DNA of 64,000 bases, from assembly GCA_903904815.1 (NCBI GenBank), contig CAIVDU010000031.1, positions 132,266-196,265 of the forward strand, given 5' to 3'. Under the pieces are notes generated by a model. The model was not told the DNA's origin, did not search any database, and saw only the letters and a program-made list of their open reading frames with translations. How positions within the stretch are numbered: position 1 is the first letter of the stretch; the number at the start of each line of letters is the position of its first letter. Positions 397 to 33,883 of this stretch are shown piece after piece. The position numbers were made by a program, and so were the translations under genes. Source of the stretch: an uncultured Armatimonadetes bacterium (GTDB lineage: Bacteria > Armatimonadota > Fimbriimonadia > Fimbriimonadales > Fimbriimonadaceae).

Positions 397-2880
397 ATGA
401 AACACTCACACTTTCGGATGTTCCCCGTTTCGTCTCGAATACGGTTGGGGCTGCTCTCGGTGGTTGGATTACTCATGTCGAGCGCCCATTCACAATCGCC
501 GGACAAGATTGGTGTCGCACTCTCTGAGTCGATTGTCAGCACGAGCGAGCTTCCGACTCATGAGAATGGAGTGTGCGTGGCCTTTCGGAAAAGCTTCCAG
601 CTTGCGGCTACTCCGGTTGAAGCGAAGTTTCATGTTTTTGCCGACGCGCGGTACATGCTTTGGATAAACGGCAGATATGTCGACCGGGGACCGGGGAGGT
701 TCGAGGCGAAGGCGCCAGAGTACGACACGCTTGACGTAAAGTCCTTCCTGCGAGCGGGCCGGAACACGATCTCCATTCTGGTGACCGGGCAGATCAGCAA
801 CGGAAAGGTTCAATGGCGTCCTCTCGGGCTCGCGGCGCGACTCATTGCGAGAACCGGCAAGAACGCGACGGTGGTGGCTCAAACTGACGCGTCTTGGAAG
901 TGGAGCCGATCCATTCGGTACCGGACGTTGAGAGTCGACTGGGCAAATATCGATGACGTTGCCGACGCCCGTGTGGAAGATGGGGATTGGACGCAAGCCG
1001 AGTATGACGATGCGAAATGGGCATCCGCTACGCCCCTCCCGCGTTCACTCTCCTGGTTTCACGCTCGTACACGAGTCGACGATCGTGAAATCAATGTACG
1101 TATCGATCCATTCGACCATGCGTCATCGAGTGGGGATCGTCAAAGCTGGTGGGGACCGCTTACTGCGCGGCGAGCACCCTTGCTGCGAGAAACAGAAGTC
1201 AAGCCAGCTTGGCAAGATGGGGTCCAATGGCCGGTGACGCTTTCAGCCGGGCAGGAGGTTGGGCTCAAGTTTCCTCACATCGTGCTGGCCTACGCCGATT
1301 TGGAGCTCGAAGCTGAGGCGGGAAGTGTTGTTGAACTGACCTACTCTCCCTCCACCCGCTATGTTTGCAAGGCGGGGATTCAGCATTTCGTGACATCGGA
1401 CACCCACTCAATCTTCGAAGGGGCGATTCGTGTCAGCGGTGGTCGAGTGACTCTGAAGCATGTTCGATTTGTCGAAAGGCTGTACCCGTTTTCGGTGGCA
1501 GGGAGCTTCAAGTCCAGCGACCCGTTGCTCGACAAGCTTTGGACGACGTGTGTTCGGGGTCTGGAGGTGACGAGTGAGGATGCATACGTCGACTGCACAG
1601 ACCGAGAGCGGGTTGAGTGGATGGACTGTGATCCACCCGCGTTCTACGTCACTCGTGTGGCGATGGTCGGTCCTTCGGTTGGCAATAAACCAGCCTACGG
1701 GGACCCGAGATTACTTGAGGTCATGCTTCGTCGGACGGGCTATTCGTTGCAGGGGGATGGGTGGGTCAAGGCTCACACTTCGTCGGATCGTTTCGACATC
1801 CACGCGAAAATGGAAGACCGCGCCTGTGACTGGGTTGAGGGTGCGCGCCGATACTATGAGTCTTCCGGAAAGCTCCAAGTGGTGCGCGAGATCTGGCCGG
1901 CGATCGTGCGCCAAATGGACTACTTCTTGGCTCGACGGTCATCGAGAGGGCTGGTGAACGCGCGAGAATGGGTTGTTTGGGGTAACCCGGTCGGCTATCA
2001 GACCTGCGAAGGCACGGCACTGAATGCTTTTGTTTGTCGTGCGCTCAACGATGCGGCGTTTCTCGGACGGAAAATTGGCAAGACTGAGGACGCCGGACGG
2101 TTTGGCCAAGAGGCCAAGCAATTGGCCGAAGCGATCAATTCCGTCCTTTGGGATGAATCGTCCGGAACCTACTTCAGTGGCTACTACGATCTTGAGGAGG
2201 CCAAAAAGGCCATCGACTATCGACCGTTGAAACTGCGAGTGACGAATCACCTGATTGAGCCAGACCGTCATGCGGCCTTGTTTGCGCTCGACCAAGGGAT
2301 CGTTCCGAAGAGTCGTCGAGCCCGAGTCTCCAAATATTTGATGGCGCATGCTCCGACCGAGAACGACATCATGCAGTACTACTACTTCTTTAAGCAGCAG
2401 TATGCCGCCGACAGTCCGGAGCAGGATTTGAGTGTGTTGCAGACACTGCGCAAGGAATGGAAGGACATGGCCGAGAGTCCCTTTGAGGCCACTTTCGAAG
2501 GACTGCATTCGTGGGGTTCCCAGGCTCACTGCTACGGAATGTTCCCCGCGTATTTCTTGAGTTCGTATGTGCTCGGCGTCCGACTGGATGGCCCAGTTCA
2601 GAACAATCGACTCATCATTGAGCCGAGGCTTGCCGATCTGTCCAGCGCGTCGGGAACGGTGGTGACGGAGTTTGGACCTGTCGTAGTGAATTGGAGGAGG
2701 ACTGAGTCGACCGGAGCGTTCCACGTTGTGGTTCCTGAAGGGGCGAAGACGGTATTGCGAATGCCCTTTGTCCCAGGAAGTCGCCCGGTACTAGATCGCA
2801 AGCCACTGGTTCAGTCGCATCGAGTCGGTCGATGGATCGAGGTGGCTATTAGCCCTGGATCTCATTCCGGGTCCTGGTGA
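397..2880 (+). CDS. Secreted glycoside hydrolase, GH78-like (alpha-L-rhamnosidase family)
   Basis: The long ORF spans 358-2880, and the likely start is the Met at 397, followed by a signal peptide (MKHSHFRMFPVSSRIRLGLLSVVGLLMSSAHS). FHVFADARYMLWINGRYVDRGPGR and YVDCTDRERVEWMDCDP resemble the N-domain and (alpha/alpha)6 catalytic-domain signatures of bacterial alpha-L-rhamnosidases. Confidence 0.7.
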   Translation: MKHSHFRMFPVSSRIRLGLLSVVGLLMSSAHSQSPDKIGVALSESIVSTSELPTHENGVCVAFRKSFQLAATPVEAKFHVFADARYMLWINGRYVDRGPGRFEAKAPEYDTLDVKSFLRAGRNTISILVTGQISNGKVQWRPLGLAARLIARTGKNATVVAQTDASWKWSRSIRYRTLRVDWANIDDVADARVEDGDWTQAEYDDAKWASATPLPRSLSWFHARTRVDDREINVRIDPFDHASSSGDRQSWWGPLTARRAPLLRETEVKPAWQDGVQWPVTLSAGQEVGLKFPHIVLAYADLELEAEAGSVVELTYSPSTRYVCKAGIQHFVTSDTHSIFEGAIRVSGGRVTLKHVRFVERLYPFSVAGSFKSSDPLLDKLWTTCVRGLEVTSEDAYVDCTDRERVEWMDCDPPAFYVTRVAMVGPSVGNKPAYGDPRLLEVMLRRTGYSLQGDGWVKAHTSSDRFDIHAKMEDRACDWVEGARRYYESSGKLQVVREIWPAIVRQMDYFLARRSSRGLVNAREWVVWGNPVGYQTCEGTALNAFVCRALNDAAFLGRKIGKTEDAGRFGQEAKQLAEAINSVLWDESSGTYFSGYYDLEEAKKAIDYRPLKLRVTNHLIEPDRHAALFALDQGIVPKSRRARVSKYLMAHAPTENDIMQYYYFFKQQYAADSPEQDLSVLQTLRKEWKDMAESPFEATFEGLHSWGSQAHCYGMFPAYFLSSYVLGVRLDGPVQNNRLIIEPRLADLSSASGTVVTEFGPVVVNWRRTESTGAFHVVVPEGAKTVLRMPFVPGSRPVLDRKPLVQSHRVGRWIEVAISPGSHSGSW

Positions 2881-2940
2881 AGCTTCAGCAGAAGAAGAAA
2901 TCCGAACTGATTCCCATCTGGATCAAATCGGCCTTAGTCT

Positions 2941-3786
2941 TTAGATCCGCTCTGCAGCGTCTACGGCGTTGCTGAGCAAGGTGGCGACGGTCATCGGTCC
3001 GACGCCGCCGGGAACCGGGGTGATCCAACTCGCGACTTCCTTGGCCGTCTCAAATTCCACGTCTCCGACATCGCCCTTGCGCCCTTCGACCTTGTTGTAG
3101 CCGGCGTCGATGACTACCGCTCCGGGCTTGATCCAGTCACCCTTCACCAGTTCGGCTTTGCCTACGGCGGCGACCAGCACGTCGGCTTCACGGCAGAGAT
3201 CAGCCAGGTTTTGGGTTCTCGAGTGGGCAATGGTGACGGTGCAGTGCTTTTGAAGGAGCATCAGGGCCATCGGCTTGCCGACAATGACGGAGCGGCCAAT
3301 GACGACAGCGCGCTTTCCGACGAGCGGGATTTCGTATCGCTCTAAGAGCTTGATTGCTCCAGCGGGGGTGGCACAGCGGAATCCTTCGAGGTCTGCGACG
3401 AGTCGTCCTAGCGACTGGGGCGTGATTCCATCCACGTCTTTGTCTGCCCCGAGCGCCATGAGAGCGGCGTTTTCGTCCAAATGCTTCGGCAACGGATGCT
3501 GCAGGAGGATTCCGTGAACCAACGGATTGGCATTCAGCTCGCCGATCTTGTCAATCAGCTCTGCTTGGGTGGTCTGGTCGTTGATCTCCCACGACTCGCC
3601 CTCCATCCCGGCGGTCTCTGCCCACTTTCGCTTCATCCGCACGTACGAGAGGGAAGCGGGGTCGGTCGCCGCGACGAGAACGTCCAGTCGAGGGACGATG
3701 CCTCGCGCTCGCAAAACGTCGACCCGCTCTTTGAGCTGGGCACGGATCTCTTTCGAAAGGGTCAGACCGTCAAGGATGTTTGCCAT
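2941..3786 (-). CDS. folD: Bifunctional methylenetetrahydrofolate dehydrogenase/cyclohydrolase FolD
   Basis: The 281-aa product looks like FolD over its full length: LSYVRMKRK, GILLQHPLP, VVIGRSVIVGKPMALMLL and the C-terminal TPVPGGVGPMTVATLL. Confidence 0.95.
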   Translation of the reverse strand: MANILDGLTLSKEIRAQLKERVDVLRARGIVPRLDVLVAATDPASLSYVRMKRKWAETAGMEGESWEINDQTTQAELIDKIGELNANPLVHGILLQHPLPKHLDENAALMALGADKDVDGITPQSLGRLVADLEGFRCATPAGAIKLLERYEIPLVGKRAVVIGRSVIVGKPMALMLLQKHCTVTIAHSRTQNLADLCREADVLVAAVGKAELVKGDWIKPGAVVIDAGYNKVEGRKGDVGDVEFETAKEVASWITPVPGGVGPMTVATLLSNAVDAAERI

Positions 3787-3795
3787 GAGAGATGT

Positions 3796-4359
3796 TTAGG
3801 ATTCTCGAATTGTCCACGAGCCGAATCGTTTGGCTGTCTTTGCCTCGTCGGAGTCTTCTTCCACGACCACTTCTTCCACTTCGACGGGAGACTCAACGAA
3901 CCGTTCTTCGGCTTCTTCGGAAGGAGCGGTTGTCGGGTCCCAATTAGCTTTAGAAGTGGTGAGGATGAACTTGCCTAAAACGCCGTTGACGAATCGACCG
4001 CTTTCGGCGGTTGAATAGCGCTTGGCAATCTCGATCGCTTCGTTGATGGTAACGGCGGGGGGAATCGCGGGCTCCTGGAGCAGTTCGTAGGCGGCTATGC
4101 GAAGGACGTTCCGATCGATGGCGGCAATGCGATCGAAGTCGTAATCTCGGATCAGCTTTGCCAGACCGTTGTCGATCTCGCCTTGGTGCTCTAACACGCC
4201 TAGGACGACTTTCTTAGCGAACTGCAACTGATCGGGCGCCAGTTCAAACTCATCGGCAGTGGTTTCGAGCGCATCGATTGGGTCGCTCTGAGCGATTTCG
4301 ACTTCGTAAAGACACCGAAGAGCCATCTCTCTTGCCTTGCGTCGGGATCGAATAGCCAT
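3796..4359 (-). CDS. nusB: Transcription antitermination factor NusB with acidic C-terminal extension
   Basis: RRKAREMALRCLYEVEI, AAIDRNVLRIAAYELL and INEAIEIAKRY...FVNGVLG are canonical NusB. About 50 extra acidic residues follow at the C-terminus. The start lies 5 nt downstream of accC and the stop 9 nt upstream of folD. Confidence 0.9.
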   Translation of the reverse strand: MAIRSRRKAREMALRCLYEVEIAQSDPIDALETTADEFELAPDQLQFAKKVVLGVLEHQGEIDNGLAKLIRDYDFDRIAAIDRNVLRIAAYELLQEPAIPPAVTINEAIEIAKRYSTAESGRFVNGVLGKFILTTSKANWDPTTAPSEEAEERFVESPVEVEEVVVEEDSDEAKTAKRFGSWTIRES

Positions 4360-4364
4360 CCTGG

Positions 4365-5720
4365 TTACACTGCCTCCCCGGAGAGGAATCGGGGAACGAA
4401 GCTAGTGTCGAACTGACCGGTGCGATATCCTTCCGAGGCGATCAAACGTCGAAGGAACGGAATGTTCGTGGCGATTCCTTCGACCTCAAATTCGTGGAGG
4501 GCCGACTCCAACTTACGAACGGCTTCTGCGCGGTCTCGACCGCGAACGATGAGTTTTGCCAAAAGTGGATCGTAGAAGGGGCTGACGGAGAACCCGGCGT
4601 AGCAGTGGGTCTCCATCCGAACACCTCTGCCTCCCGGAGCTCGCCAACCCGTGATGCAGCCGGTCGAGGGGGCAAAGTCCTTGTCCGGGTCCTGGGCAGT
4701 GATTCTGGCTTCGATCGCGTGTCCGCTCAACGTCACATCTTCCTGGGTGATCGGGAGACGCTCGCCGCTGGCGATTTTGAGCATAAGATGAACCAGGTCG
4801 ATTCCGGTGATCTCTTCGGTGACCGGGTGCTCTACCTGGAGTCGGGTGTTCATCTCAAGGAAGTAGAACTTGTTCTCGGAGTCGACGAGAAACTCGACGG
4901 TTCCTGCGTTCTGGTAACCGACGCTTTGGGCGACCCTAACGGCGGATTCGCCCATGGCGCGCCGAACGTCGTCGGGTAGATCAGCATAAGGCGCTTCCTC
5001 GACTAACTTTTGGTGGCGCAGGTTCTGGATCGAGCACTCTCGCTCTCCAAGATAAACCATGTTGCCGAACGAGTCTCCGATGACCTGAATCTCGACATGC
5101 CGGGGAGCGACGACAAACTTTTCGATGAGCATCTCGCCCGAGCCGAAGCTGGCCTGAGCTTCGGCCTGGGCGGTCTTCCAAAGGCCGCTGAGTTCATCGG
5201 GTGAGTCCACCCGGCGGATGCCTCGGCCGCCTCCACCCGCCACCGCTTTCAGAAGAACCGGGTAACCGATCTCTTCAGCGACTTTCAGGGCTTCCGTATC
5301 ATTAGGCACGGCGCCTTCGCTCCCGGGAACGACCGGGCAGTTGGCCAAAACCGCGGCTTTCTTGGCGCTGGCCTTGTCGCCCATGGATTCAATGGCGGCA
5401 GTGGGTGGCCCGACGAACTTGATGCCGAGCGACTCTAGAGCGACGGCAAAATTCGCTCGCTCGCTGAAGTAACCATAACCGGGATGCACCGCTTCGGCGC
5501 CGGAGATTTGGCAGGCCATTAGGACGTTCGCGAGGTTGAGATACGAATCGGTGTTTGAACCCGCGCCCACGCAGACCGCTTCATCGGCGATCTTTACGTG
5601 CAGGCTCTCACGATCGGCCTCGGAGAAGATAGCGACGCTCTTAATGCCGAGTTCACGGCAGCCGCGAATGACGCGGCAGGCGATCTCTCCACGATTTGCT
5701 ATGAGAACCTTTTTAATCAT
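4365..5720 (-). CDS. accC: Acetyl-CoA carboxylase biotin carboxylase subunit
   Basis: The 451-aa product carries MIKKVLIANRGEIACRVIR, the ATP-grasp loop AVAGGGGRGIR and EMNTRLQVEHPVTE. Confidence 0.95.
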   Translation of the reverse strand: MIKKVLIANRGEIACRVIRGCRELGIKSVAIFSEADRESLHVKIADEAVCVGAGSNTDSYLNLANVLMACQISGAEAVHPGYGYFSERANFAVALESLGIKFVGPPTAAIESMGDKASAKKAAVLANCPVVPGSEGAVPNDTEALKVAEEIGYPVLLKAVAGGGGRGIRRVDSPDELSGLWKTAQAEAQASFGSGEMLIEKFVVAPRHVEIQVIGDSFGNMVYLGERECSIQNLRHQKLVEEAPYADLPDDVRRAMGESAVRVAQSVGYQNAGTVEFLVDSENKFYFLEMNTRLQVEHPVTEEITGIDLVHLMLKIASGERLPITQEDVTLSGHAIEARITAQDPDKDFAPSTGCITGWRAPGGRGVRMETHCYAGFSVSPFYDPLLAKLIVRGRDRAEAVRKLESALHEFEVEGIATNIPFLRRLIASEGYRTGQFDTSFVPRFLSGEAV

Positions 5721-6103
5721 CAGTACTTGTCGTGTCCGGGGTGCACACAGTGGACCTGCCCGGTCGAAGGGTCGTAAGCGTAGGGCTCATGCCCGATGGG
5801 GCATCGGTAGAAATCGGCCCCAATGTGGGTCTCGTCAAGCGACTGAGGGTACTTTCCGTCACCGTCAGTCGTTTCCGCGATCTGTAGCGCGGATCGAACC
5901 TGTGAAAGGTTGCTTCGGCACACGTCGTCTTTGGCTGCCCACTCTGCCGCGCCCATGACGGTCGTTCCTTTCCCATCCTTTCGGGACGAGGTCGCCTTGG
6001 AACTGAACATCCCGCTGCCTTTAAAAAGGGCAACCGCAAGAAGAGCCATGATGACTAGAGTCACCATCGTGGCCACCAGTGTCGAACCTTGTTGTCGCTT
6101 CAT
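5720..6103 (-). CDS. Small pilin-like protein (non-canonical prepilin-type N-terminus, Cys/His-rich C-terminus)
   Basis: The N-terminus MKRQQG-STLVATMVTLVIMALLAVALF has a short basic leader, a Gly and an approximately 20-residue hydrophobic helix. The head region CRSNLSQVRSALQIAE..DGKYPQSL looks pilin-like. The tail is CPIGHEPYAYDPSTGQVHCVHPGH. Stop and start codons overlap both neighbours (ATGA at 6100-6103, TGATG at 5718-5722). Confidence 0.6.
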   Translation of the reverse strand: MKRQQGSTLVATMVTLVIMALLAVALFKGSGMFSSKATSSRKDGKGTTVMGAAEWAAKDDVCRSNLSQVRSALQIAETTDGDGKYPQSLDETHIGADFYRCPIGHEPYAYDPSTGQVHCVHPGHDKY

Positions 6104-6489
6104 CCTAGCCTCACTTTTGCCAAGGGCTGGCCAAACTCGACCGGCTGGTTCGCGGCCACAAGCACCTCGACAACCTCGCCCGTGACCTTGGACTCCACTT
6201 CATTCGCAATCCCAAGCGCCGCGACGATCGCGACCACTTCTCCCTTCTTGACGTTGCGGCCGACCGCCAATGGTTCTTTAGCGTCGCGGTAGAAACCGAC
6301 CAGCGACGATTTAATCTCGCCAAACTGCGGCTCGTTCGAAACTTCGGTCGTCGCAGACGCTGGGCGTGCCGCCGCTTGCAGCGGATCCAGGCGCGCGGAG
6401 AACGATCCTTCCTCGCCTGTCAACTCAACTTCGGCGAATCCTCTGGCTCGTGCAACGGTCAGCGCATGGCGCACAAGATCGACGTCCAT
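6100..6489 (-). CDS. accB: Biotin carboxyl carrier protein-like protein lacking the biotinyl-lysine
   Basis: The product has a BCCP-like N-terminus and a C-terminal biotinyl/lipoyl-type domain (SSLVGFYRDA...VGRNVKKGEVVAIVAALGIANEVESKVTGEVVEVLVAANQPVEFGQPL). ALGI occupies the position of the invariant AMKM motif, and the codon at 6211-6213 is GGG. The gene is directly coupled upstream of accC. Confidence 0.8.
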   Translation of the reverse strand: MDVDLVRHALTVARARGFAEVELTGEEGSFSARLDPLQAAARPASATTEVSNEPQFGEIKSSLVGFYRDAKEPLAVGRNVKKGEVVAIVAALGIANEVESKVTGEVVEVLVAANQPVEFGQPLAKVRLG

Positions 6490-6640
6490 AAGCTAACAGT
6501 GTACCGGGATCTGATGCTCTCGCCCAATCGCGAATGATGCCAGGGAACTCCCTGCGATCGCCCCATGACCTCCGTTTGATTTTCCCGCTAGAATCAGAGT
6601 CTAGGGGTGATCTCGCCTCCGTGAGTGCGTAGAGGCATCT

Positions 6641-7333
6641 GTGAAGTCGATCCCAGTCAAGAATTCTTCGATCAAGATCTATCTTTTCCTGGTGGCCTTC
6701 TCCCTGGTGGGATCGTTAATCTCACACTACAACCACACGAACCCGACTGGGATCGCTCACCCGACTGCTCTACTCACCCTGGCGATTGGTTGCTTGGCTG
6801 CCTTCCAACCGACTTGGAGGGTGCAGGGAGCGAAGACGTTATGGGCTCTCGGGGTGGTTTGGTTCATTGGGGCGCTAGCCGAGTTGGTGGGGTTGTCCAC
6901 CGGATTCCCTTTCGGACGATACCGATACACCGATCAATGGTGGCCAGTGGTCCATCTTCCCGGGGTCGGAGCTTTTCCGCTTCAACTGCCATTCGCTTGG
7001 GTGCTCGTACTTGGAAGCTCCTATCTCCTGGTTGCGCCTCGGCTGCAAGGTTGGGCAATCGTGGTTGCTGCCGCATTGGCCATGCTGGTAGACCAAGTCA
7101 TGGAACCCACCATGACTCGGTCACTGGGCTACTGGAAGTGGATCGACACCGGACCGCTGGCCGGTAGATCGCCCATCTGGAATGCGGTGGGCTGGTTTTT
7201 GGTGTCGATGGTCGCCGCCTACTCGCTTCGTTTGATGCTGGGCAAGAACCTTACGCAAACATATACGCCAGGCATTGTTCTGCTAGCACACGTTGGACTG
7301 GTGCTGGGATTGGGCTGGATCTCAGTGGCATGA
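6641..7333 (+). CDS. Polytopic membrane protein, carotenoid-biosynthesis-protein (DUF422/CruF-like) family candidate
   Basis: The 230-aa product starts at GTG and has about 7 hydrophobic segments. [14 protein letters not shown] resembles the conserved G-x-PFG-x-Y-x-Y motif of that family. The family assignment is tentative. Confidence 0.45.
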
Positions 7334-7358
7334 GACTCCAATCACGTATCCTCGAGAC

Positions 7359-7922
7359 ATGAAGGTTGTGAAGTTTTGGAAGCCCTATGGAGTCCTTCCT
7401 CAATTCACTGATCCCGAGGGTCGGCCGACTCTGGCGGACTTCATCCCGCTGTCGAATATCTATCCGGCGGGAAGACTGGACTTCGATAGCGAGGGCCTGA
7501 TGATTCTTACCGACGACGGAATATTGAATGCTCGGCTGACTCAACCACGGTTTCGCCATCCGAAGACCTACCTCGTGCAGGTGGAAAAGATTCCCGACTC
7601 ACGGGCTCTCCAATCTCTTCGTACGGGAGTGGAACTGAACGATGGGATGACTCTTCCCACGAAGGTCAAACTTCTCGACACGGAACCTATCCTCCCCCCT
7701 AGGTCGAAACCAGTGAGAGAACGAAAAGCCATTCCCACCGCATGGCTTTCGATGACTCTCACCGAGGGCCGAAACCGGCAAGTGCGTCGAATGACCGCTG
7801 CGGTGGGTCATCCTACGCTTCGCCTGGTGCGTTGGGCTTCGGGGCCTGTGACTCTAGACGGACTCGAAGAAGGTCGATGGGCAGAACTAACGGCTAGCGA
7901 AGTAAAGCAACTGTTTTCGTGA
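7359..7922 (+). CDS. rluE: 23S rRNA pseudouridine synthase RluE (RsuA family, no S4 domain)
   Basis: The product is nearly collinear with E. coli RluE: [11 protein letters not shown], the catalytic-Asp motif [24 protein letters not shown], and [23 protein letters not shown]. The Met at 7359 was chosen over the ORF-track start at 7293, which overlaps the preceding gene. Confidence 0.85.
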
Positions 7923-8066: not shown

Positions 8067-10013
8067 ATGAAGTCTTGGTTTGCAAATCTGAAGTTGTCAG
8101 CGAAATTGTCGCTTGGCTTCGGCATCACATCTTTTTTGACACTCGCGGTGACCATTCTTGCGGTTGGGGGAATCGGGTCTCTCCACGGTGACATTCGATC
8201 GGTGGGCGACAAGGCCCTTTCCGGGGAAGTCAGCCTGGCTCAATTCGGACTTGCCAGCACTCAATTTCGCGTGCTTCAATATCGAACTGCAGGCATCACG
8301 GGCACGAAAGCTGAGGAGATGGCAAACCTTGCCGATAACACCGGCACGAAAGCAGATCAAGCCCTCACGGAATTCTCCTCTAAGGTGACTGATCCTGAGG
8401 AGCGGAAACTCACGGAAGACGTGATTGACGGCTGGCGCAAGTACGAAGAGGTCTGGAAAGAAATTCGACCGAAGATCCTCGTCGTCAGCGCTGCGGATGG
8501 TTACAACCTCATGGAGAGCCGCACGGACAGTTTCAATAGCGAGTTTATGCCCGCGCTCAACAAGTTGAGTGAGTGGAACCTCAAGTTCGGAGCCAAGACA
8601 TCCAAGCAGGCCGACTCTGACGCGGGGTCGCTGACTAGCTCGGTGACAACCATGGGTCTTGCCGCAGTCGGGCTCAGTATCTTCCTCGCAATCGGACTCG
8701 TTCGAAAAATCGTTGCTCCCATCTCAGCCGTCTCGGCTGGCCTCAAGTCAATTCGTGAGCATTGCCTCCGAGACCTTACGAACGGCCTAAACTCCCTGCG
8801 AGCAGGCGACCTCACTCAGGAGGTCGTTGCGGTGACCAAGCCGATCGAGAATAACTCCCACGACGAGATTGGACTGATGACCTCGACCTATAACGATCTC
8901 GTGCTGCTATCGCAGGAGTCGATTGAGTCTTACAATCAGGCCCGAACCTCCTGGGTGGGCATCGTGAACAACTTAGGGACCAGCGCGGTAGCGGTGGCCG
9001 ACACGAGTCGCATGCTCGAAGACGCCTTCGAACAGAGCCGCGCCGCGTCCGTCGAGATTGCGACCGGCAGTGAGCAGTTAGCCCGAGGGGCGACGCAGGC
9101 CGCTAGCGTCATGGATGAGCTTCTCATTCGGGTAGCTACCGTGAAGTCGAGCAGCCAGAACCAAGAGTTCGAGGTCTCCGGCGCAGTTGGTGAGCTTCAG
9201 GAAGCCGAAGAGGGAATCAATGGCGTGGCCGGCGCCGCCCAGGAAATGACGGCTGCCGCTCAAGAGGGCAACCTCGCGGTGAGTCAGACCATTGCGTCCA
9301 TGGACCGCGTTCGAGATCGGGTTGGCGTCTCTGCGCTGAAGGTCAAGGAGCTCGACGAGAAGGGCAAACAGATTGGCCACATCGTTCAGAGCATCGAGAG
9401 CATTGCCGGACAGACCAATCTTTTGGCGCTCAACGCGGCCATCGAGGCGGCTCGAGCAGGCGAGCACGGCCGAGGCTTTGCGGTGGTTGCCGACGAAGTC
9501 CGCAAGCTTGCCGAGCAGGCCAGCAACGCGACTCAGGAAATCTCGACCCTCATTTCCGGCGTAACGGCAACCGTGTCTCAAACTGTGGAAGCGATTGAGA
9601 GCGCGTCGGCAGAGGTCATCGAGGGCGCGGCTCGAAGCGAAGTGGCGGGTCGATCCCTTAACCATATTCTCAAAGCAGCGGAACAGGTTGCCACGCAGGC
9701 CGAACAGGTGGCAGCGAAAACGCAGCAGGCTACGGGAAGGATTACCAATATCTCGCTCGCGGCGCGGTCTAATTCCGAGTCGACCGAGGAGATCGCCGAA
9801 GGATCCAATACGGTCGCGAACGCCATCTCAAACGTGGCGGCAGTGAGCCAAGAGTCGGCCGCGGGCGCTCAAGAGCTGAGCGCGACGATCCATCAGATTG
9901 GGGAGGCGGCGCGAGAGCTTACGACGATGAGTAAGGATCTGCACGGAGTTATCGCCAAGTTTAACACCGGACAAGTCAAGGCAAAAACCAAAGCTCTCCG
10001 AATCGCAGCTTAA
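8067..10013 (+). CDS. Methyl-accepting chemotaxis protein
   Basis: The N-terminus [31 protein letters not shown] forms TM1, followed by an approximately 170-aa helical sensor region, TM2 and a HAMP domain. The signalling hairpin [36 protein letters not shown] is conserved. GGAGG lies at 8059-8063. The ORF track offers an alternative TTG start at 8022. Confidence 0.9.
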
Positions 10014-10107
10014 GCAGACAACTCGGTGGAGCGGCATTCGCTCTGTATAGCCACCTAGCGGATCGGCGGATTCTCCCGCAGCTTCACTAGAACTGAACCT
10101 AAAGAGA

Positions 10108-10132
10108 ATGACGCCGCGTCTTGCGGCGTCAT
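10108..10132 (+). terminator. Hairpin downstream of the chemoreceptor gene (candidate terminator)
   Basis: A perfect 10-bp stem (atgacgccgc / gcggcgtcat) closes a 5-nt loop. The downstream T-tract is weak (aatcctgtt). Confidence 0.45.
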
Positions 10133-10142
10133 AATCCTGTTG

Positions 10143-11537
10143 ATGCCTCCCGGTTCAGACAAAGTAAAGATCGTCACTCTCGGCTGCGCCAAGAACGAAG
10201 TCGATAGCGAAGAGATCGCCGGCGTCCTCCAAGAGGCGGGTTATGATGTTGATGGCGCGGCTCGGAAGACCGCGGTGACCATTATCAACACCTGCGGATT
10301 TCTTGAAGCCTCGAAAGAGGAGAGCATCAAGGCGATCAAAGAGGCGGTGCGGGAAAAGCATGCTGGCCGCACCGGAAAAGTGATCGTGGCTGGGTGCTTG
10401 GCCCAGAGACTCGGACCCGAACTGATGCGACTGGCGCCAGGCGCCGATTCCTATGTTGGCGTGGGTCAGATGGGTCGGTTCGGGGACATCGTCAAGGAGG
10501 TCCAGGCCAGCCGTGAACAGACTTTAGACGTATCTCCTCCCCATCACCGATGGGCCGATGTCCCCACCCGTGCCCGTACGGGCAGGCCATGGAGCGCCTA
10601 TCTCAAAATCTCCGAGGGTTGCGACCACCGTTGCACCTTCTGCACCATCCCGAGCTTTCGGGGAGCTCACCAGAGCAAGCCGATTGAGCGGGTCGTCGCC
10701 GAGGCCAGACACTTGGCCAACACGGGCGCCCGTGAGATCAATCTCATTGCTCAAGACGTGACTCAGTACGGCTTTGACCTTTACAAGGAGTTCACGCTTC
10801 CTAAGCTCCTGCGAGAGTTGAACGCGATCGAGGGCATCGAGTGGATTCGGCTCCTTTATTTCTATCCGAACCGTCTCACGGATGAGGTCATTGAAGCGAT
10901 GGCGACCTTACCGAAGGTGTTGGAGTACATCGACATTCCGCTACAACACGTTCACCCGGAGACCTTACGCCGGATGAAGAGACCCTGGGACGGCGAGCGT
11001 TACATGCGGCTATTCGACAAGGTGCGGGCGGCCATGCCAAACGCGGCAATTCGAACCACGTTCATCGTCGGATTCCCCGGGGAAACCGACGAAGAGTTCG
11101 AGTCGTTGATCGATTTCACCAAGGAAGCTCGACTTGATCGAGTCGGCGCTTTCGTGTTCTCGAGAGAGCCAGGCACGCCCTCGCACGACATGGACGACCA
11201 GGTGTCGCTCAAGGTCAAACGCGAACGATACGATCGCCTCATGCGCACGCAACAGAAGATCTCACTCGAGGTCAACCAGGGGTGGATCGGGAAAGACCTC
11301 GACGTCTTGATCGAAGACGAACGAGACGGATGGCTGATCGGTCGCTCTCACCGGGATGCTCCGGAGATTGATGGGCTCGTGTTCGTTCAGGGCGACGCGC
11401 CGATGGGACGCATCGTGAAGGCAAGCATCGTGGATGCGGAGGCCTACGACCTCCACGCCCGGGTGGGCGCCGTCCCTGCCGTCAAGAGCCGCTCTCTGAC
11501 CCAGTTGAGACAGGCCGCTCCCGCGAGACCGCTCTAG
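10143..11537 (+). CDS. rimO: Ribosomal protein S12 methylthiotransferase RimO (radical SAM MTTase)
   Basis: The product has the N-terminal MTTase domain VKIVTLGCAKNEVDSE, the radical-SAM cluster motif CDHRCTFCTIPSFRG, FIVGFPGETDEEF and a C-terminal TRAM-like domain. Confidence 0.85.
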   Translation: MPPGSDKVKIVTLGCAKNEVDSEEIAGVLQEAGYDVDGAARKTAVTIINTCGFLEASKEESIKAIKEAVREKHAGRTGKVIVAGCLAQRLGPELMRLAPGADSYVGVGQMGRFGDIVKEVQASREQTLDVSPPHHRWADVPTRARTGRPWSAYLKISEGCDHRCTFCTIPSFRGAHQSKPIERVVAEARHLANTGAREINLIAQDVTQYGFDLYKEFTLPKLLRELNAIEGIEWIRLLYFYPNRLTDEVIEAMATLPKVLEYIDIPLQHVHPETLRRMKRPWDGERYMRLFDKVRAAMPNAAIRTTFIVGFPGETDEEFESLIDFTKEARLDRVGAFVFSREPGTPSHDMDDQVSLKVKRERYDRLMRTQQKISLEVNQGWIGKDLDVLIEDERDGWLIGRSHRDAPEIDGLVFVQGDAPMGRIVKASIVDAEAYDLHARVGAVPAVKSRSLTQLRQAAPARPL

Positions 11538-16698: not shown

Positions 16699-17925
16699 AT
16701 GATTGGACCATTGGTGAGCGTTGCGATCTTAGTTTTAGGTGGCTTCTCTAGGCATCAAGGACCAGCAGATCCCGGGATCATTTACCCAGACTCGAGCGTT
16801 CCCGTCTTCGATAACGGTCGAACTGCGCACACGAACTACGTATTCTGGGTTGGGACGCCCCAGCAACACCATGACTCGCCCGACCTAATCAGCCCAGAAC
16901 CATTCGGTCCTCAACGAACTGTCACCCCAAGCGGTTACTATCCCGCGGATATCCGCGCCGCCTACCATCTTCCCAGTTTAGCGGGGGCTAAGGCGATTGC
17001 CATCGTGGATGCGTACCACACGCCAACCGCGCTGAATGACTTCAATGTCTTTTCCAAGCAGTTCGGTCTCCCGGTCGAGACTTCGACCACTGCAACCGCG
17101 ACCAAGAACAACGTATTCCAGGTTGTCAATCCGACGAACGCTAAGTTGACGACCAACACGTCTTGGGGACAAGAGGCAACCCTTGACATTGAATGGGCTC
17201 ATGCAATCGCGCCGAACGCCAAGATCTACTTGGTCGAAGCCGCAACGAATAGCACGGATGACCTTTATGCAGCCGTAAAGCTTGCCGCCGGCCTGCCCGG
17301 CGTGGCCGAGGTCTCCATGAGCTGGGGTTCGCCCGAATTCCCCACTGAGTACGCGTATGACAGCACGTTTGTTCAGAAGGGAGTGGTTTTCATCGCTTCG
17401 TCTGGGGATACCGGCGCGCCCGAGTATCCCGCTGCGGGTGTCAACGTAGTCGGTGTCGGTGGAACGAGTCTGACGATGTCCAAGGGCGCCTTTGTCTCGG
17501 AAACCCCATGGGGCAGTTCGGGCGGAGGTCCGAGCGCGTATACGAAGCTTCCGGCATTCCAAAGCGCGTTCTCCTCGATCTTCAAATACCGAGGGGGACC
17601 GGACATCTCGTGCGTTGCCGACCCCAAAACGGCAGTGGCAGTTTACTTTTCGGGCAGTTCGAGTGGTCCCGGCTGGACGACCCTTGGGGGAACGAGCGTG
17701 TCTTGTCAAATCTTTGCGGGCATGGTGAACGCTGCCGCCAGTTGGCAGACGTCATCGGCAGCCGAACTCACGAAGATATACGCTGGACTTGGCGGGGCCG
17801 ACTTCCGCTCGATCAAAATTACCGCGAGCAATCTTTTGTGGAGAGATCCGGGCCATCCGACGGTCACGAAGGGCTGGAACTACATCACTGGAGTGGGAAC
17901 TCCGTTGGGCCTTCACGGGCTCTAA
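16699..17925 (+). CDS. S53 (sedolisin/kumamolisin-like) serine peptidase, compact form, paralog 1
   Basis: EATLDIEWAHAIAP provides the Glu/Asp of the catalytic triad, ASSGDTGA the oxyanion Asp, and VGVGGTSL plus LGGTSVSCQIFAG the Ser motif. Only about 95 residues precede the catalytic domain. Confidence 0.8.
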   Translation: MIGPLVSVAILVLGGFSRHQGPADPGIIYPDSSVPVFDNGRTAHTNYVFWVGTPQQHHDSPDLISPEPFGPQRTVTPSGYYPADIRAAYHLPSLAGAKAIAIVDAYHTPTALNDFNVFSKQFGLPVETSTTATATKNNVFQVVNPTNAKLTTNTSWGQEATLDIEWAHAIAPNAKIYLVEAATNSTDDLYAAVKLAAGLPGVAEVSMSWGSPEFPTEYAYDSTFVQKGVVFIASSGDTGAPEYPAAGVNVVGVGGTSLTMSKGAFVSETPWGSSGGGPSAYTKLPAFQSAFSSIFKYRGGPDISCVADPKTAVAVYFSGSSSGPGWTTLGGTSVSCQIFAGMVNAAASWQTSSAAELTKIYAGLGGADFRSIKITASNLLWRDPGHPTVTKGWNYITGVGTPLGLHGL

Positions 17926-18093
17926 CGTTATCTCCCAGCAGTAGTTCTCGTGGCTGGCAGGGTAACGAGCTAGTTAGCGCTTTATCTACTAACTTATGGA
18001 TGGTTATCCTGTTAATTCCACAGGATGGCACCTGTCATTCTGGCGGTAATTGATGTCAGATGAGCTCAAGCCAGGTAAGAAATCGCGGCAAAT

Positions 18094-18133
18094 CCTGAGG
18101 TTGTAGTGGCAAGACCAAAACAATATCCTCAGG
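18094..18133 (+). promoter_or_regulatory. Possible RBS-occluding hairpin in the leader of S53 paralog 2
   Basis: cctgagg (18094-18100) is the reverse complement of cctcagg (18127-18133). The latter overlaps the AGGAGG at 18131-18136, which lies 10 nt upstream of the ATG at 18147. Confidence 0.2.
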
Positions 18134-18146
18134 AGGAAGCTAACCA

Positions 18147-19361
18147 ATGCTGCCATTTATCGCCTTGTCGCTTCAGGCTGCTTACGCCTCACACTTCGGA
18201 CCGTCCGACTTGAAAAACCCGAATCTGCTCTTTCCGGAAAGCTCGGTGGCTCGATGGTATGACGCAGGACTCGCCGCTCACTCGCACGTCATTATCTGGA
18301 ATGGCGCCGAACAGCGCCCAGATTATCGCCGGTTTGCGATGACCGAAGATTCCAATGTGTTTAGCGGTCCTGCTGCCCGAGCGACAACTCCGGCCGGATT
18401 TGGGCCTTCCGATGTCCGCGCCGCCTACAATATCCCTTCTCTCTCGGGAACGAAGGCGATCGCGATCGTTGATGCTTATCACTATGCCACCGCGCTGAAC
18501 GACTTCAACGTCTTCGCCAAGATGTATGGCCTTCCCCTTGAGACGTCGACCAACGCGACACTCGCTACCAACACTCACTTCCAGGTCGTGTACCAGGGAA
18601 CGACGGCTCCCTCCGTCAATTCGGGTTGGAACATGGAAGCGGCTCTGGACATCGAGTGGGTCCATGCCATCGCGCCCAACGCAAAGATCTACCTTGTGGA
18701 AGCGAACAGTTCGAGTCTGAACGACATGTATGCAGCCACCAAGAAAGCGGCGACGCTTGCGAACGTCAAAGAAGTGTCCATGAGTTGGGGCGCTGGCGAG
18801 TACAGCGGGGAAACGTCCGCTGATTCTACGTTCTCGGCGACGGGTGTGGTCTTCTTCGCTTCCAGCGGCGACACGACTGCCGTTCAGGAATATCCTTCGG
18901 AGTCTCCAAACGTAGTCGCCGTCGGCGGAACTTCGCTTGTGATGTCCAACGGAGCGGTGACCAAGGAGACGCCATGGTCCGGAGCGGGCGGAGGCATTAG
19001 CAAGTACGAGGCGATCCCCAGCTACCAGAAGTCGATTGCTAGTTATGTCGGAACGAAGCGTGGCGCCGCCGATGTCTGTGCCATCGCCGATCCCAACACC
19101 GGTGTGGCGGTTTACGACTCGACGACGGTGAGCGGCCGATCCGGCTGGATGGTGGTGGGCGGTACGAGCCTTGCCTGCCCAGTAACGGCGGCGATCACCA
19201 ATGTCTCTGGTAGCTTCCTTGGCTCCTCGCCCCTGGAACTCGCCAAGATCTACGGTGGTCTCGGTGGCGCCAACTTCAGAAAGATCTCTGGCCCAACCCC
19301 CAAAGCGACCTGGTACTACGCCGTGGGAGTAGGAAGTCCCCTCGGAACAAAGGGTCTCTAA
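18147..19361 (+). CDS. S53 (sedolisin-like) serine peptidase, compact form, paralog 2
   Basis: EAALDIEWVHAIAP, ASSGDTTA, AVGGTSL and VGGTSLACPVTAA are present. The product is collinear with paralogs 1 and 3. An in-frame TAA at 18141-18143 fixes the start. Confidence 0.8.
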   Translation: MLPFIALSLQAAYASHFGPSDLKNPNLLFPESSVARWYDAGLAAHSHVIIWNGAEQRPDYRRFAMTEDSNVFSGPAARATTPAGFGPSDVRAAYNIPSLSGTKAIAIVDAYHYATALNDFNVFAKMYGLPLETSTNATLATNTHFQVVYQGTTAPSVNSGWNMEAALDIEWVHAIAPNAKIYLVEANSSSLNDMYAATKKAATLANVKEVSMSWGAGEYSGETSADSTFSATGVVFFASSGDTTAVQEYPSESPNVVAVGGTSLVMSNGAVTKETPWSGAGGGISKYEAIPSYQKSIASYVGTKRGAADVCAIADPNTGVAVYDSTTVSGRSGWMVVGGTSLACPVTAAITNVSGSFLGSSPLELAKIYGGLGGANFRKISGPTPKATWYYAVGVGSPLGTKGL

Positions 19362-19380
19362 GCAGACGGATCCTCTTTGA

Positions 19381-19423
19381 GCGGACCCCTGAAGGAAATT
19401 CCTTCAGGGGTCCGCTGCTATTT
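19381..19423 (+). terminator. Rho-independent terminator after S53 paralog 2
   Basis: A perfect 15-bp stem (gcggacccctgaagg / ccttcaggggtccgc) closes a 5-nt loop and is followed by tgctattt. Confidence 0.8.
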
Positions 19424-19457
19424 GCGCCGTATTCGAGCAAATCGTTTATAAAATACT

Positions 19458-19480
19458 TTGTCTATCGTTTAAGTAGACAA
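19458..19480 (+). promoter_or_regulatory. Inverted repeat in the AT-rich region upstream of S53 paralog 3 (candidate operator)
   Basis: ttgtcta (19458-19464) and tagacaa (19474-19480) are reverse complements separated by 9 nt, within the most AT-rich part of this intergenic region. Confidence 0.25.
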
Positions 19481-19536
19481 GATTTTCACAAAGAACCTTG
19501 GTAATTCGACCATTTCTCGATTAGAGTAAATATGCC

Positions 19537-19554
19537 GGGCGACGATAGTCGCCC
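19537..19554 (+). promoter_or_regulatory. Short leader hairpin immediately 5' of the RBS of S53 paralog 3
   Basis: gggcgac-gata-gtcgccc forms a 7-bp stem that ends 2 nt before the AGGAGG at 19557-19562. The GTG start is at 19572. Confidence 0.25.
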
Positions 19555-19571
19555 AAAGGAGGATTCCTCAA

Positions 19572-20783
19572 GTGCTTTCGCTCATTGGACTGTCTCTTCA
19601 AGCCGCCTATGCGGTTCTTCATGGCCCCGCGGCCCTTTCTGACCACCGTGTGTTCGTTCCGGATTCATCAATTCCGAAGTGGTACGAGGCTGGCCTCGCC
19701 GCCCATACCCATCATCTGATCTCGATCGGACCGCAGGAAAACCCTCAGCCGATCTATCCGACCGAGTTTGCGCTCAACGGCCCTTTGGCGGCAGCAACGC
19801 CAAGCGGGTACTCACCTTCGCAGATCCGATCGGCCTATGCCGTGGTTGGCGCAGGTTCAAAGGCGATCGCGATCGTCGATGCCTACAACTATCCAACCGC
19901 GCTAAACGACTTCAATGTGTTCTCGGCCCAGTACGGGCTGCCCCAGGAGACTTCGACAAGCGTGACCGCCAGCACCAACAAGGTCTTCCAGGTTGTCTAT
20001 CAGGGAACAAAAAAGCCTTCGAACAACGCAAGTTGGAACGAAGAAGAGGCGCTGGACATTGAGTGGGCTCACGCACTCGCGCCAAGCGCCAAGATTTACC
20101 TTGTCGAGGCAAATAGTGCCAGTTACGCAAATCTTTTCGCGGCGATCCAGAAGGCCGCCACTCTGACTGGTGTCTCGGAAGTCTCCAATAGTTGGGGAGG
20201 GTCTGAGTTCTCGGGGGAGACCTCGTATGACAGCTACTTCACCACAAGCGGCATCGTGTTCTTCGCATCCGCAGGTGATACGGGCGGAGCTCAGGAGTAT
20301 CCGTCCGAGTCTCCAAATGTCGTGGCGGCGGGAGGCACCACGCTGAATCTCAGTGGCACTACGGTGACTAGCGAGACGGCTTGGAGCGGGTCTGGCGGTG
20401 GCCCGAGTAGCTACGAGGCGAGACCTTCCTATCAGAGCGGCATCTCCTCGATCGTGGGTAGCGTCCGAGGCGCCCCGGATCTTGCCGCTGATGCGGATCC
20501 GAATACCGGTGTGGCCGTCTATGACAGCACCAGCTATGCCGGTTACGTCGGCTGGCTTGTCTTTGGCGGCACCAGCGTGGCGAGCCCAGTTCTGGCTGGA
20601 ATCACGAACGCGGCCGGCACATTCAGGGCTTCTTCAAACGCGGAGTTGACCGCCATCTACTCCAAGTTAGGAACCTCAAGTTTCCGAGATATCACCTCTG
20701 GAAGCGCTGGCTCGTTCACCGCCAAAGTCGGATGGGACTTCATCACCGGTGTGGGTGCTCCGGTCGGAGCGAGCGGTCTTTAA
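19572..20783 (+). CDS. S53 (sedolisin-like) serine peptidase, compact form, paralog 3
   Basis: EEALDIEWAHALAP, ASAGDTGG and FGGTSVASPVLAG are present. The gene starts at GTG, and there is no other in-frame start after the TAA at 19527-19529. Confidence 0.8.
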   Translation: MLSLIGLSLQAAYAVLHGPAALSDHRVFVPDSSIPKWYEAGLAAHTHHLISIGPQENPQPIYPTEFALNGPLAAATPSGYSPSQIRSAYAVVGAGSKAIAIVDAYNYPTALNDFNVFSAQYGLPQETSTSVTASTNKVFQVVYQGTKKPSNNASWNEEEALDIEWAHALAPSAKIYLVEANSASYANLFAAIQKAATLTGVSEVSNSWGGSEFSGETSYDSYFTTSGIVFFASAGDTGGAQEYPSESPNVVAAGGTTLNLSGTTVTSETAWSGSGGGPSSYEARPSYQSGISSIVGSVRGAPDLAADADPNTGVAVYDSTSYAGYVGWLVFGGTSVASPVLAGITNAAGTFRASSNAELTAIYSKLGTSSFRDITSGSAGSFTAKVGWDFITGVGAPVGASGL

Positions 20784-33242: not shown

Positions 33243-33554
33243 TTAGCCCTTCTTCTTCATGTCGTCCATCTTCTTCATGCCGTCGTGCTTCATCATCATG
33301 CCGTCATGCTTCATCATCGCGCCCTTCTTCTCCATCATGGCGCCCTTCTTCATCATCATCGCGCCCTTTTTCATCATCATGTGCTTCTTCATCATCATGT
33401 GCTTGTGGGACATCGCGTGCTTCGACATCATGCCGTCGTGCTTCATCATCATTGAGCCCTTCTTGTCCATGCCGTCCATCTTCTTGTCCTGGGCGATGGC
33501 AAGGCTTGAGAGGGCGCAAACGCCGACTACGATTAGGGATAGAATTTTTTTCAT
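33243..33554 (-). CDS. Secreted Met/Lys/His-rich low-complexity protein (MxKDx-repeat-like)
   Basis: The signal peptide is MKKILSLIVVGVCALSSLAIA. It is followed by 82 residues containing, by hand count, 27 Met, 22 Lys and 7 His in repeats such as MMKHDG and MMMKKGA. Confidence 0.7.
   Translation of the reverse strand: MKKILSLIVVGVCALSSLAIAQDKKMDGMDKKGSMMMKHDGMMSKHAMSHKHMMMKKHMMMKKGAMMMKKGAMMEKKGAMMKHDGMMMKHDGMKKMDDMKKKG
33246..33491 (-). repeat. Degenerate in-frame tandem repeats encoding the Met-rich mature region
   Basis: Nucleotide units such as catcatcat, cttcttcat and gcgcccttcttc recur throughout the region. Repeats at the protein level are KHDGMMM (twice) and MMMKKGA-type units (three times). 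Confidence 0.6.
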
Positions 33555-33883
33555 GACTTACTTTTCCTTTGATTGAAAGGCGAGCAATAGCTCTACTCTT
33601 TTGTTAATGCGGAGAATACCTCACAAGTCCTAATGTCTCGAATTTCGGTTTCTCCGCCCACTCTCTTGGAAATGCGCCTAGAAAGCGATTAGTTCCTAGA
33701 AAATCTTGAATGGGTCCATGAGACTGCGGTGCCGCTAACTGAATCTCTGCGTTTTACGCATCAGTTTCTGCAGCGGGCCATTTGAGCCGAGATTTGTGGA
33801 TTGGAAAGTCTCCTTGCCCCACCAAATCTACGCCCGCGTTACTCTTCTGAACCCTTCGGCCACTTCAATCGTATGGATAGCAA

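Follow-up and report, generated by a model that had tools for sequence, protein, structure and literature searches.

The subject of this report is bccpL, a gene for a homologue of biotin carboxyl carrier protein (AccB or BCCP) in DNA of an uncultured Armatimonadetes bacterium of the family Fimbriimonadaceae (GenBank assembly GCA_903904815.1, contig CAIVDU010000031.1, positions 132,266 to 196,265 of the forward strand). The window designates the whole of this 64,000-nucleotide stretch; coordinates are given within it. bccpL (6100-6489, minus strand, 129 aa) is the positional counterpart of accB, upstream of accC, the gene for biotin carboxylase (BC). Its product lacks the lysine that accepts biotin: a glycine codon occupies the column of that lysine. 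Judged from alignments, a large family that spans the order Fimbriimonadales (Armatimonadota) has this loss as a fixed trait, and lysine and thumb have been lost in the accB slot at least twice independently, in Armatimonadota and in Fusobacteriota. The reading favoured here, with moderate confidence, is by analogy: the protein would be a non-catalytic subunit or regulator of BC comparable to the BADC proteins of plants, and the real carrier would be encoded elsewhere.

The acceptor lysine column in bccpL and its relatives

The sequence-only reading of this DNA had recognised a BCCP homologue over the full length of the 129-aa product, with glycine in place of the biotinyl lysine; both statements are borne out. 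The product of this open reading frame (ORF) matches Pfam Biotin_lipoyl (E = 1.2e-9) and is aligned end to end with E. coli AccB by BLASTP (32% identity, E = 1e-16). Its best NCBIfam model is TIGR00531 (BCCP), with 62.8 bits; this is about half of the curated cut-off (115.2 bits), below which the protein falls. The phmmer alignments to PDB chains 4HR7, 1BDO and 1A6X agree in register with BLASTP. In both alignments, ungapped over 20 residues on each side, G93 is opposite biotinyl-Lys122 of E. coli AccB. Codons 91-94, read directly from the sequence, are gcg ctt ggg att (A91 L92 G93 I94), the GGG codon lying at 6211-6213 (6213-6211 as read on the minus strand). A-L-G-I replaces A-M-K-M: L92 and I94 stand in for the two methionines that flank the lysine.

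A second feature is also missing. The thumb of BCCPs of the acetyl-CoA carboxylase (ACCase) type lies against biotin. In bccpL it is lost through a deletion of 4-5 residues (FYR----DAKEP vs FYRTPSPDAKAF), which faces TPSP of E. coli AccB. The product is, as far as its sequence indicates, unable to accept biotin or to carry carboxybiotin between active sites; the transport step would fail because both the acceptor lysine and the biotin-contacting thumb are gone. A negative outcome is accordingly predicted both for biotinylation by BirA and for carboxybiotin shuttling. bccpL departs from AccB on three defining points (lysine, thumb, TIGR00531 cut-off) and should not be annotated as a carrier.

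The remainder of the protein is AccB-like. The N-terminal region (residues 1-33; 6391-6489) aligns to residues 1-33 of E. coli AccB in BLASTP. In an AlphaFold2 (AF2) model built from the family alignment (mean predicted local distance difference test score, pLDDT, 85), this region forms a helix (3-16) and a beta-hairpin (20-33; strands 20-25 and 28-33). A disordered linker of low pLDDT (34-54) is followed by a barrel (55-128; pLDDT 93-96). The biotinyl-type beta-barrel, as delimited from the model, Foldseek and the alignments, covers residues 55-129 (6103-6327) and has no thumb. Among PDB entries, Foldseek ranks biotinyl domains of BCCPs highest: 1BDO, 4HR7, 9A87 (Arabidopsis BCCP1) and 5GUA (Pyrococcus), with target-normalised template modelling scores of about 0.80-0.88. 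According to the model, the whole AccB architecture is kept, the biotinyl-domain fold included.

The window protein does not stand alone: the loss is fixed across Fimbriimonadales, Fimbriimonas ginsengisoli Gsoil 348, a cultured type strain, included, and a second loss is found in Cetobacterium. At least 115 close relatives, clustered at 90% identity, are among the homologue matches listed; all carry ALG[IL], and those with names belong to Fimbriimonas, Fimbriimonadaceae or Fimbriimonadales. An exhaustive HMMER search, which covered 1.84 billion 50%-identity representatives, gave 114 matches at E <= 1e-30; the best 147 of these representatives were inspected and are all Lys-less (147/147). The comparison of lysine and glycine among orthologues that had been called for with the sequence-only reading was made on 260 distinct family members: the biotinyl-Lys column holds G in 258, S in 1 and N in 1, and lysine in none. 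No conserved Lys column was found elsewhere in the 260-sequence alignment (maximum Lys frequency 0.48), and therefore no alternative attachment site is seen. A shifted lysine as acceptor was rejected for the bccpL family and for the Cetobacterium family alike, neither of which has a conserved lysine.

Conservation is distributed over both folded parts of the protein. The mean frequency of the top residue in the same 260 sequences is 0.59 in the N-terminal domain, 0.60 in the barrel and 0.41 in the linker. Residues R7, A9, L10, A13, G17, F30 and A32 of the N-terminal domain, several of which are among the most conserved of the family, are at least 90% conserved; conserved barrel positions are V64, G65, G77, G83, A91, L92, G93, G104, E108, V117, G120 and Q121. 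The N-terminal helix-hairpin of canonical BCCPs serves for association with BC and for oligomerisation. Its conservation in the bccpL family is in line with a protein-protein interface that has been retained.

A sequencing or assembly error, or a decaying accB pseudogene, is so improbable an origin for the glycine codon that it can be set aside. The identical protein is encoded in independent assemblies (L001, L002), the column holds glycine in nearly all relatives, and the frame is unbroken at every locus. In comparisons of the window with seven relatives, nonsynonymous divergence (dN) is 0.33-0.39 and synonymous sites are saturated (proportion of synonymous differences, pS, 0.70-0.83); dN far below the saturated synonymous divergence indicates purifying selection on bccpL. 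The gene is also present in an isolate genome, that of F. ginsengisoli (CP007139.1), where its product (AIE86820.1 / WP_025229245.1) carries the motif AALGIAND. A read error or a pseudogene is excluded by this conservation. The F. ginsengisoli protein is labelled 'acetyl-CoA carboxylase biotin carboxyl carrier protein' in GenBank (AIE86820.1) and 'biotin/lipoyl-containing protein' in RefSeq.

Gene order in Fimbriimonadales and a second Lys-less lineage

The order on the minus strand of the window is bccpL, pilinL, accC, nusB, folD. pilinL is a pilin-like ORF (5720-6103, 127 aa; Pfam N_methyl) with a conserved position; accC (4365-5720, 451 aa) encodes biotin carboxylase; nusB (3796-4359; Pfam NusB, 2.3e-34) follows accC in most related loci, and folD (2941-3786; Pfam THF_DHG_CYH and THF_DHG_CYH_C) follows nusB in many of them. 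The gene had been placed in the accB slot of an accB-accC-nusB-folD arrangement. As a positional counterpart of accB it keeps that place; it is not immediately upstream of accC, pilinL, which the sequence-only reading had not noticed, being intervening. bccpL and accC share a strand and are separated by this one small overlapping ORF; their linkage is lost in one subclade. The ATG of pilinL overlaps the stop codon of bccpL (ATGA), and the stop codon of pilinL overlaps the start of accC; the arrangement of stops and starts in F. ginsengisoli is identical. The overlapping frames of bccpL and pilinL, and in most genomes of pilinL and accC, are consistent with coupled translation.

The AccC of the window passes NCBIfam PRK08591 (641 bits vs a cut-off of 597) and matches the BC of S. 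aureus, 2VPQ, with E = 8.8e-154 in phmmer. In the alignment to 2VPQ it keeps the glycine-rich loop GGGGRG, EMNTRLQVEHPVTE, GHAIEARI and the Arg338-equivalent region. Fimbriimonadales orthologues are 70-95% identical (dN about 0.11). The enzyme is apparently catalytically intact.

The order bccpL-pilinL-accC-nusB, often followed by folD, is found in 25 of the 29 loci of the genome scan. The bccpL-pilinL-accC triad is also found in F. ginsengisoli (OP10G_3452, OP10G_3453 and OP10G_3454), in two further long contigs and, except for L044 and L046, in those metagenome loci that include upstream DNA and encode an AccC at least 67% identical. In one subclade (L017, L023, L026; about 10000-11440) bccpL and pilinL lie upstream of uppS (undecaprenyl diphosphate synthase), and no accC is found within 10 kb of the pair. 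L044 and L046 encode an AccC 84% and 81% identical, respectively, followed by nusB and preceded by unrelated genes; they are probably the accC half of the operon that is split in that subclade. Together, these loci suggest a split of the operon in one subclade of Fimbriimonadales. The idea that the accC of the split subclade stands beside a canonical accB was rejected on account of the unrelated upstream genes of L044 and L046.

pilinL is found beside bccpL in every Fimbriimonadales locus examined that has downstream DNA, those with accC elsewhere included; purifying selection on the two genes is alike. The window protein scores 24.3 bits against N_methyl (cut-off 21.2); the F. ginsengisoli orthologue, annotated 'hypothetical' (OP10G_3453), scores 20.4 bits. 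A prepilin-type N-terminal motif, a transmembrane helix, a long helix like that of PulG and, in the C-terminal part, conserved Cys and His are recognised; C62, C101, C119, H121, H124 and other residues are invariant in 9 sequences. A glutamate at +5 is a feature of assembling pilins. Position +5 of pilinL is not Glu: the window reads G-STLVA, and the orthologues have A or G at +5. An AF2 model from an alignment of two sequences has a pLDDT of 72 and places the transmembrane helix at residues 8-28; the best Foldseek matches of this two-sequence model are pilins (4IXJ, 4NOA, 6T8S), all of them weak (E > 4).

The second lineage is found in low-GC loci (L062-L066, L117), in the order dnaE, a gene for a 137-aa BCCP-like protein, accC, Asp23, an unnamed ORF, DUF2273, nusB. 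The BCCP-like gene lies, for example, at L063:5568-5981 and L117:10001-10414. Its homologues form 70 clusters, all from Cetobacterium (Fusobacteriota) where named, which read VMGLKTPLKS; most named entries are annotated as AccB. Glycine is invariant at the Lys column in the 70 clusters and no lysine is invariant: some members have Arg in place of the one located two residues past the glycine. The thumb is deleted as well. The Cetobacterium protein thus resembles bccpL as a thumb-less BCCP homologue encoded upstream of accC with glycine at the Lys column. It differs in that its gene is directly upstream of accC, with no pilin-like gene, in that the operon continues with Asp23, DUF2273 and nusB, and in that the BCCP-like proteins belong to separate families, the AccC proteins being 55% identical. 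These differences set the two losses apart as independent, and a double loss that has arisen twice marks Lys-less BCCPs as a recurrent, selectable solution.

A third Lys-less BCCP-like protein, 31% identical, is encoded at L031:9992-10390 (IEALGLETEIES, motif ALGLETEIES), on a low-GC contig labelled 'Gammaproteobacteria', from an unrelated genome. Its gene is near mnmA and alaS; neither accC nor a pilin-like gene was found near it on L031.

Role of the bccpL product

In the favoured reading, the bccpL product would bind AccC through its AccB-type N-terminal domain and its barrel, would occupy the BCCP binding sites of BC and so would organise the BC sub-complex or restrain it, like the BADC proteins of plants. 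A separate Lys-bearing holo-carrier (a second accB or a fused domain) would do the chemistry. One translationally coupled unit would yield the protein along with the small pilin-like membrane protein and also, in most genomes, AccC. AccC binding and a regulatory or scaffolding effect are suggested by the conserved AccB-type N-terminal domain and by the operon linkage.

The physiological substrate of AccC is protein-bound biotin. AccC looks intact and highly conserved, so a biotinylated substrate must exist. Fatty-acid synthesis together with biotin auxotrophy has been deduced for F. ginsengisoli (PMC4072686); the supplements of that genome paper hold no biotin or carboxylase entries. From the strong constraint on AccC, the nature of its substrate and this combination in F. 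ginsengisoli, it is very probable that a Lys-bearing carrier is encoded elsewhere, whether as a stand-alone second accB or as a biotinyl domain fused to another subunit (the two taken jointly).

Several results weigh against the reading of a BADC-like subunit served by a distant carrier. A six-frame search, which combined a motif scan with a hidden Markov model (HMM) of the bccpL family, E. coli AccB and P0117, run with filters off, revealed no Lys-bearing biotinyl domain in the window, nor any within 6-10 kb of about 55 related loci. Over 80 metagenome loci, the canonical BCCPs that this HMM detected all belong to unrelated organisms, whose AccC is no more than 54% identical. No canonical BCCP close to the bccpL family is among the matches listed in a word-indexed homologue search; the sole canonical BCCP there is P0117 (AMKL), from an unrelated organism with efp-accB-accC and an AccC 49% identical. 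Finally, bccpL is linked more tightly to pilinL than to accC, since the pair stays together where accC is elsewhere, and its function may not be centred on AccC.

The absence of a neighbouring carrier would be accounted for if the Lys-less protein were the sole protein of BCCP type in an atypical carboxylase, as an obligatory structural subunit of a stand-alone AccC. The biotinyl domain would then be fused to the carboxyltransferase or another subunit, or malonyl-CoA would come from another acyl-CoA carboxylase, itself a fused one. Besides the lack of a stand-alone canonical accB near the related loci and of a close canonical paralogue among the matches listed, the strong conservation of AccC is in keeping with this, and Chloroflexus has a fused BC-BCCP alongside a separate, stand-alone second BC (PMC11077971). 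The explanation is nevertheless doubtful: its basis is absence in local neighbourhoods, and most bacteria that have a 450-aa AccC have a stand-alone BCCP. Equally doubtful is a wider version, in which Fimbriimonadales and Cetobacterium would be without any stand-alone catalytic BCCP, and the accB-slot protein would be an obligatory biotin-free subunit of BC, co-assembled in Fimbriimonadales with the membrane-anchored pilin-like protein, carboxybiotin being provided by a biotinyl domain on another polypeptide. If true, such an absence would constitute a bacterial acetyl-CoA carboxylase architecture not previously described. The tighter linkage with pilinL could instead reflect a module of these two genes that serves the envelope or some other purpose and whose proximity to accC was inherited from the origin of bccpL as an accB. 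The pair is an invariant unit, retained upstream of uppS in L017, L023 and L026 where accC is missing within 10 kb; the accC orthologues of L044 and L046 have unrelated upstream genes; the ATGA overlap is present in the window and in F. ginsengisoli; and selection on the two genes is similar. This is judged unlikely. The globular part of a PulG-like protein is expected to be extracytoplasmic; the BCCP-like protein has no signal peptide or transmembrane segment, so direct contact with pilinL would involve no more than a few N-terminal residues. In F. ginsengisoli, PulG-like genes number 79 and are scattered over the genome (PMC4072686), and insertion of one into the operon could be a matter of chance. 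Retained binding to BC is also argued for by the conserved AccB-type N-terminal domain.

E. coli AccB is reported as an autoregulator of accBC. A transcriptional autoregulator acting through its AccB-type N-terminal domain, with the barrel as a vestige, would agree with the high conservation of that domain and with the first position of bccpL in the operon. It is very unlikely here, for the barrel is as conserved as the N-terminal domain (V64, G65, G77, L92, G93 and G104 are invariant) and hence is not a vestige. The protein shows no evident DNA-binding feature, and a promoter and terminator scan of 2700-6900, in which the number of sites was no higher than expected by chance, is uninformative.

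Among known systems, the closest functional likeness to a BADC-like subunit is the plant one, which the sequence-only reading had already put forward as an analogy. Plant BADCs, BCCP homologues without the lysine, bind BC and modulate ACCase (PMC12706156; PMC11889953). BADC1-3, of the heteromeric ACCase of plastids, resemble the bccpL product: the BCCP fold is kept, the biotinylation motif is absent, the protein is otherwise conserved and, for bccpL by analogy, non-catalytic. Action on the BC sub-complex is documented for BADC (PMC12706156; PMC11889953) and is a prediction for bccpL. BADC is an extra paralogue beside the catalytic BCCP1/2, whereas bccpL itself fills the accB slot, and the replacement in bccpL, unlike that in BADC, is a glycine in a near-invariant ALG[IL] motif. 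The origin of bccpL is likely to be independent of that of plant BADC, to judge from a family found only at Armatimonadota-type loci and from its place in a bacterial accB slot.

Canonical AccB (TIGR00531; 1BDO, 4HR7) and the bccpL product have the same domain order, size and predicted fold, and the same position upstream of accC, then nusB and folD; the accBC region of Firmicutes also continues with nusB and folD. Unlike canonical AccB, bccpL has Gly for Lys and Leu/Ile for the flanking Met, lacks a thumb and reaches half of the TIGR00531 cut-off; unlike canonical accBC, its locus has a pilin-like gene inserted before accC. A precedent for non-catalytic regulators encoded in acc operons is YqhY/RfaA of B. 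subtilis (Asp23 family), encoded in the accBC operon and linked to ACCase control (PMC5437119; bioRxiv 10.1101/2024.02.19.580884). It, too, is small and accessory, and its gene accompanies accB and accC. Its fold and family are unrelated to those of bccpL and its gene is downstream of accC, so the likeness is one of analogy only.

A full-text literature search found no bacterial Lys-less BCCP, BADC being treated in plant and algal papers only; it found no paper linking Fimbriimonas to ACCase, and for Cetobacterium fish-nutrition papers only. Lys-less, non-catalytic BCCP homologues have been discussed as a plant speciality, that of BADC. In bacteria, the accB gene that belongs to the acc operon itself has undergone this loss, now fixed, in two unrelated lineages. 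Specialists of biotin enzymes would be surprised that an entire order, and a genus in a second phylum, should have an operon-encoded accB unable to carry biotin. Both lineages include cultured members (the type strain of F. ginsengisoli; Cetobacterium), and two questions become testable in bacteria: BADC-type control of BC, and how BC is served without a biotin-carrying partner from its operon. The annotation as a carrier (AIE86820.1 and many Cetobacterium entries) would be functionally wrong and misleads metabolic reconstruction.

Other features of the window

The divergent neighbour of bccpL (6641-7333, plus strand) encodes a membrane protein of the Caroten_synth family (PF04240); a biotin transporter, considered for this upstream gene, was ruled out by that assignment. 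The next gene (7293-7922) encodes a pseudouridine synthase.

An imperfect tandem array is located at 33246-33404 (periods of 18, 21 and 42 nt; 70-86% matches), inside an ORF of 105 aa (33259-33576). The translation of this ORF is of low complexity and rich in Phe, Ile and Met; it is probably not a normal protein-coding gene.

Three tandem paralogous ORFs (408, 404 and 403 aa) are found at 16699-20783 on the plus strand. Their N-terminal regions are similar (...PDSSVP... / ...PESSVARWYDAGLAAH... / ...PDSSIPKWYEAGLAAH...). They are followed by an apparent ORF of outer-membrane type and an ABC ATPase, both recognised by eye from the N-terminal sequence only.

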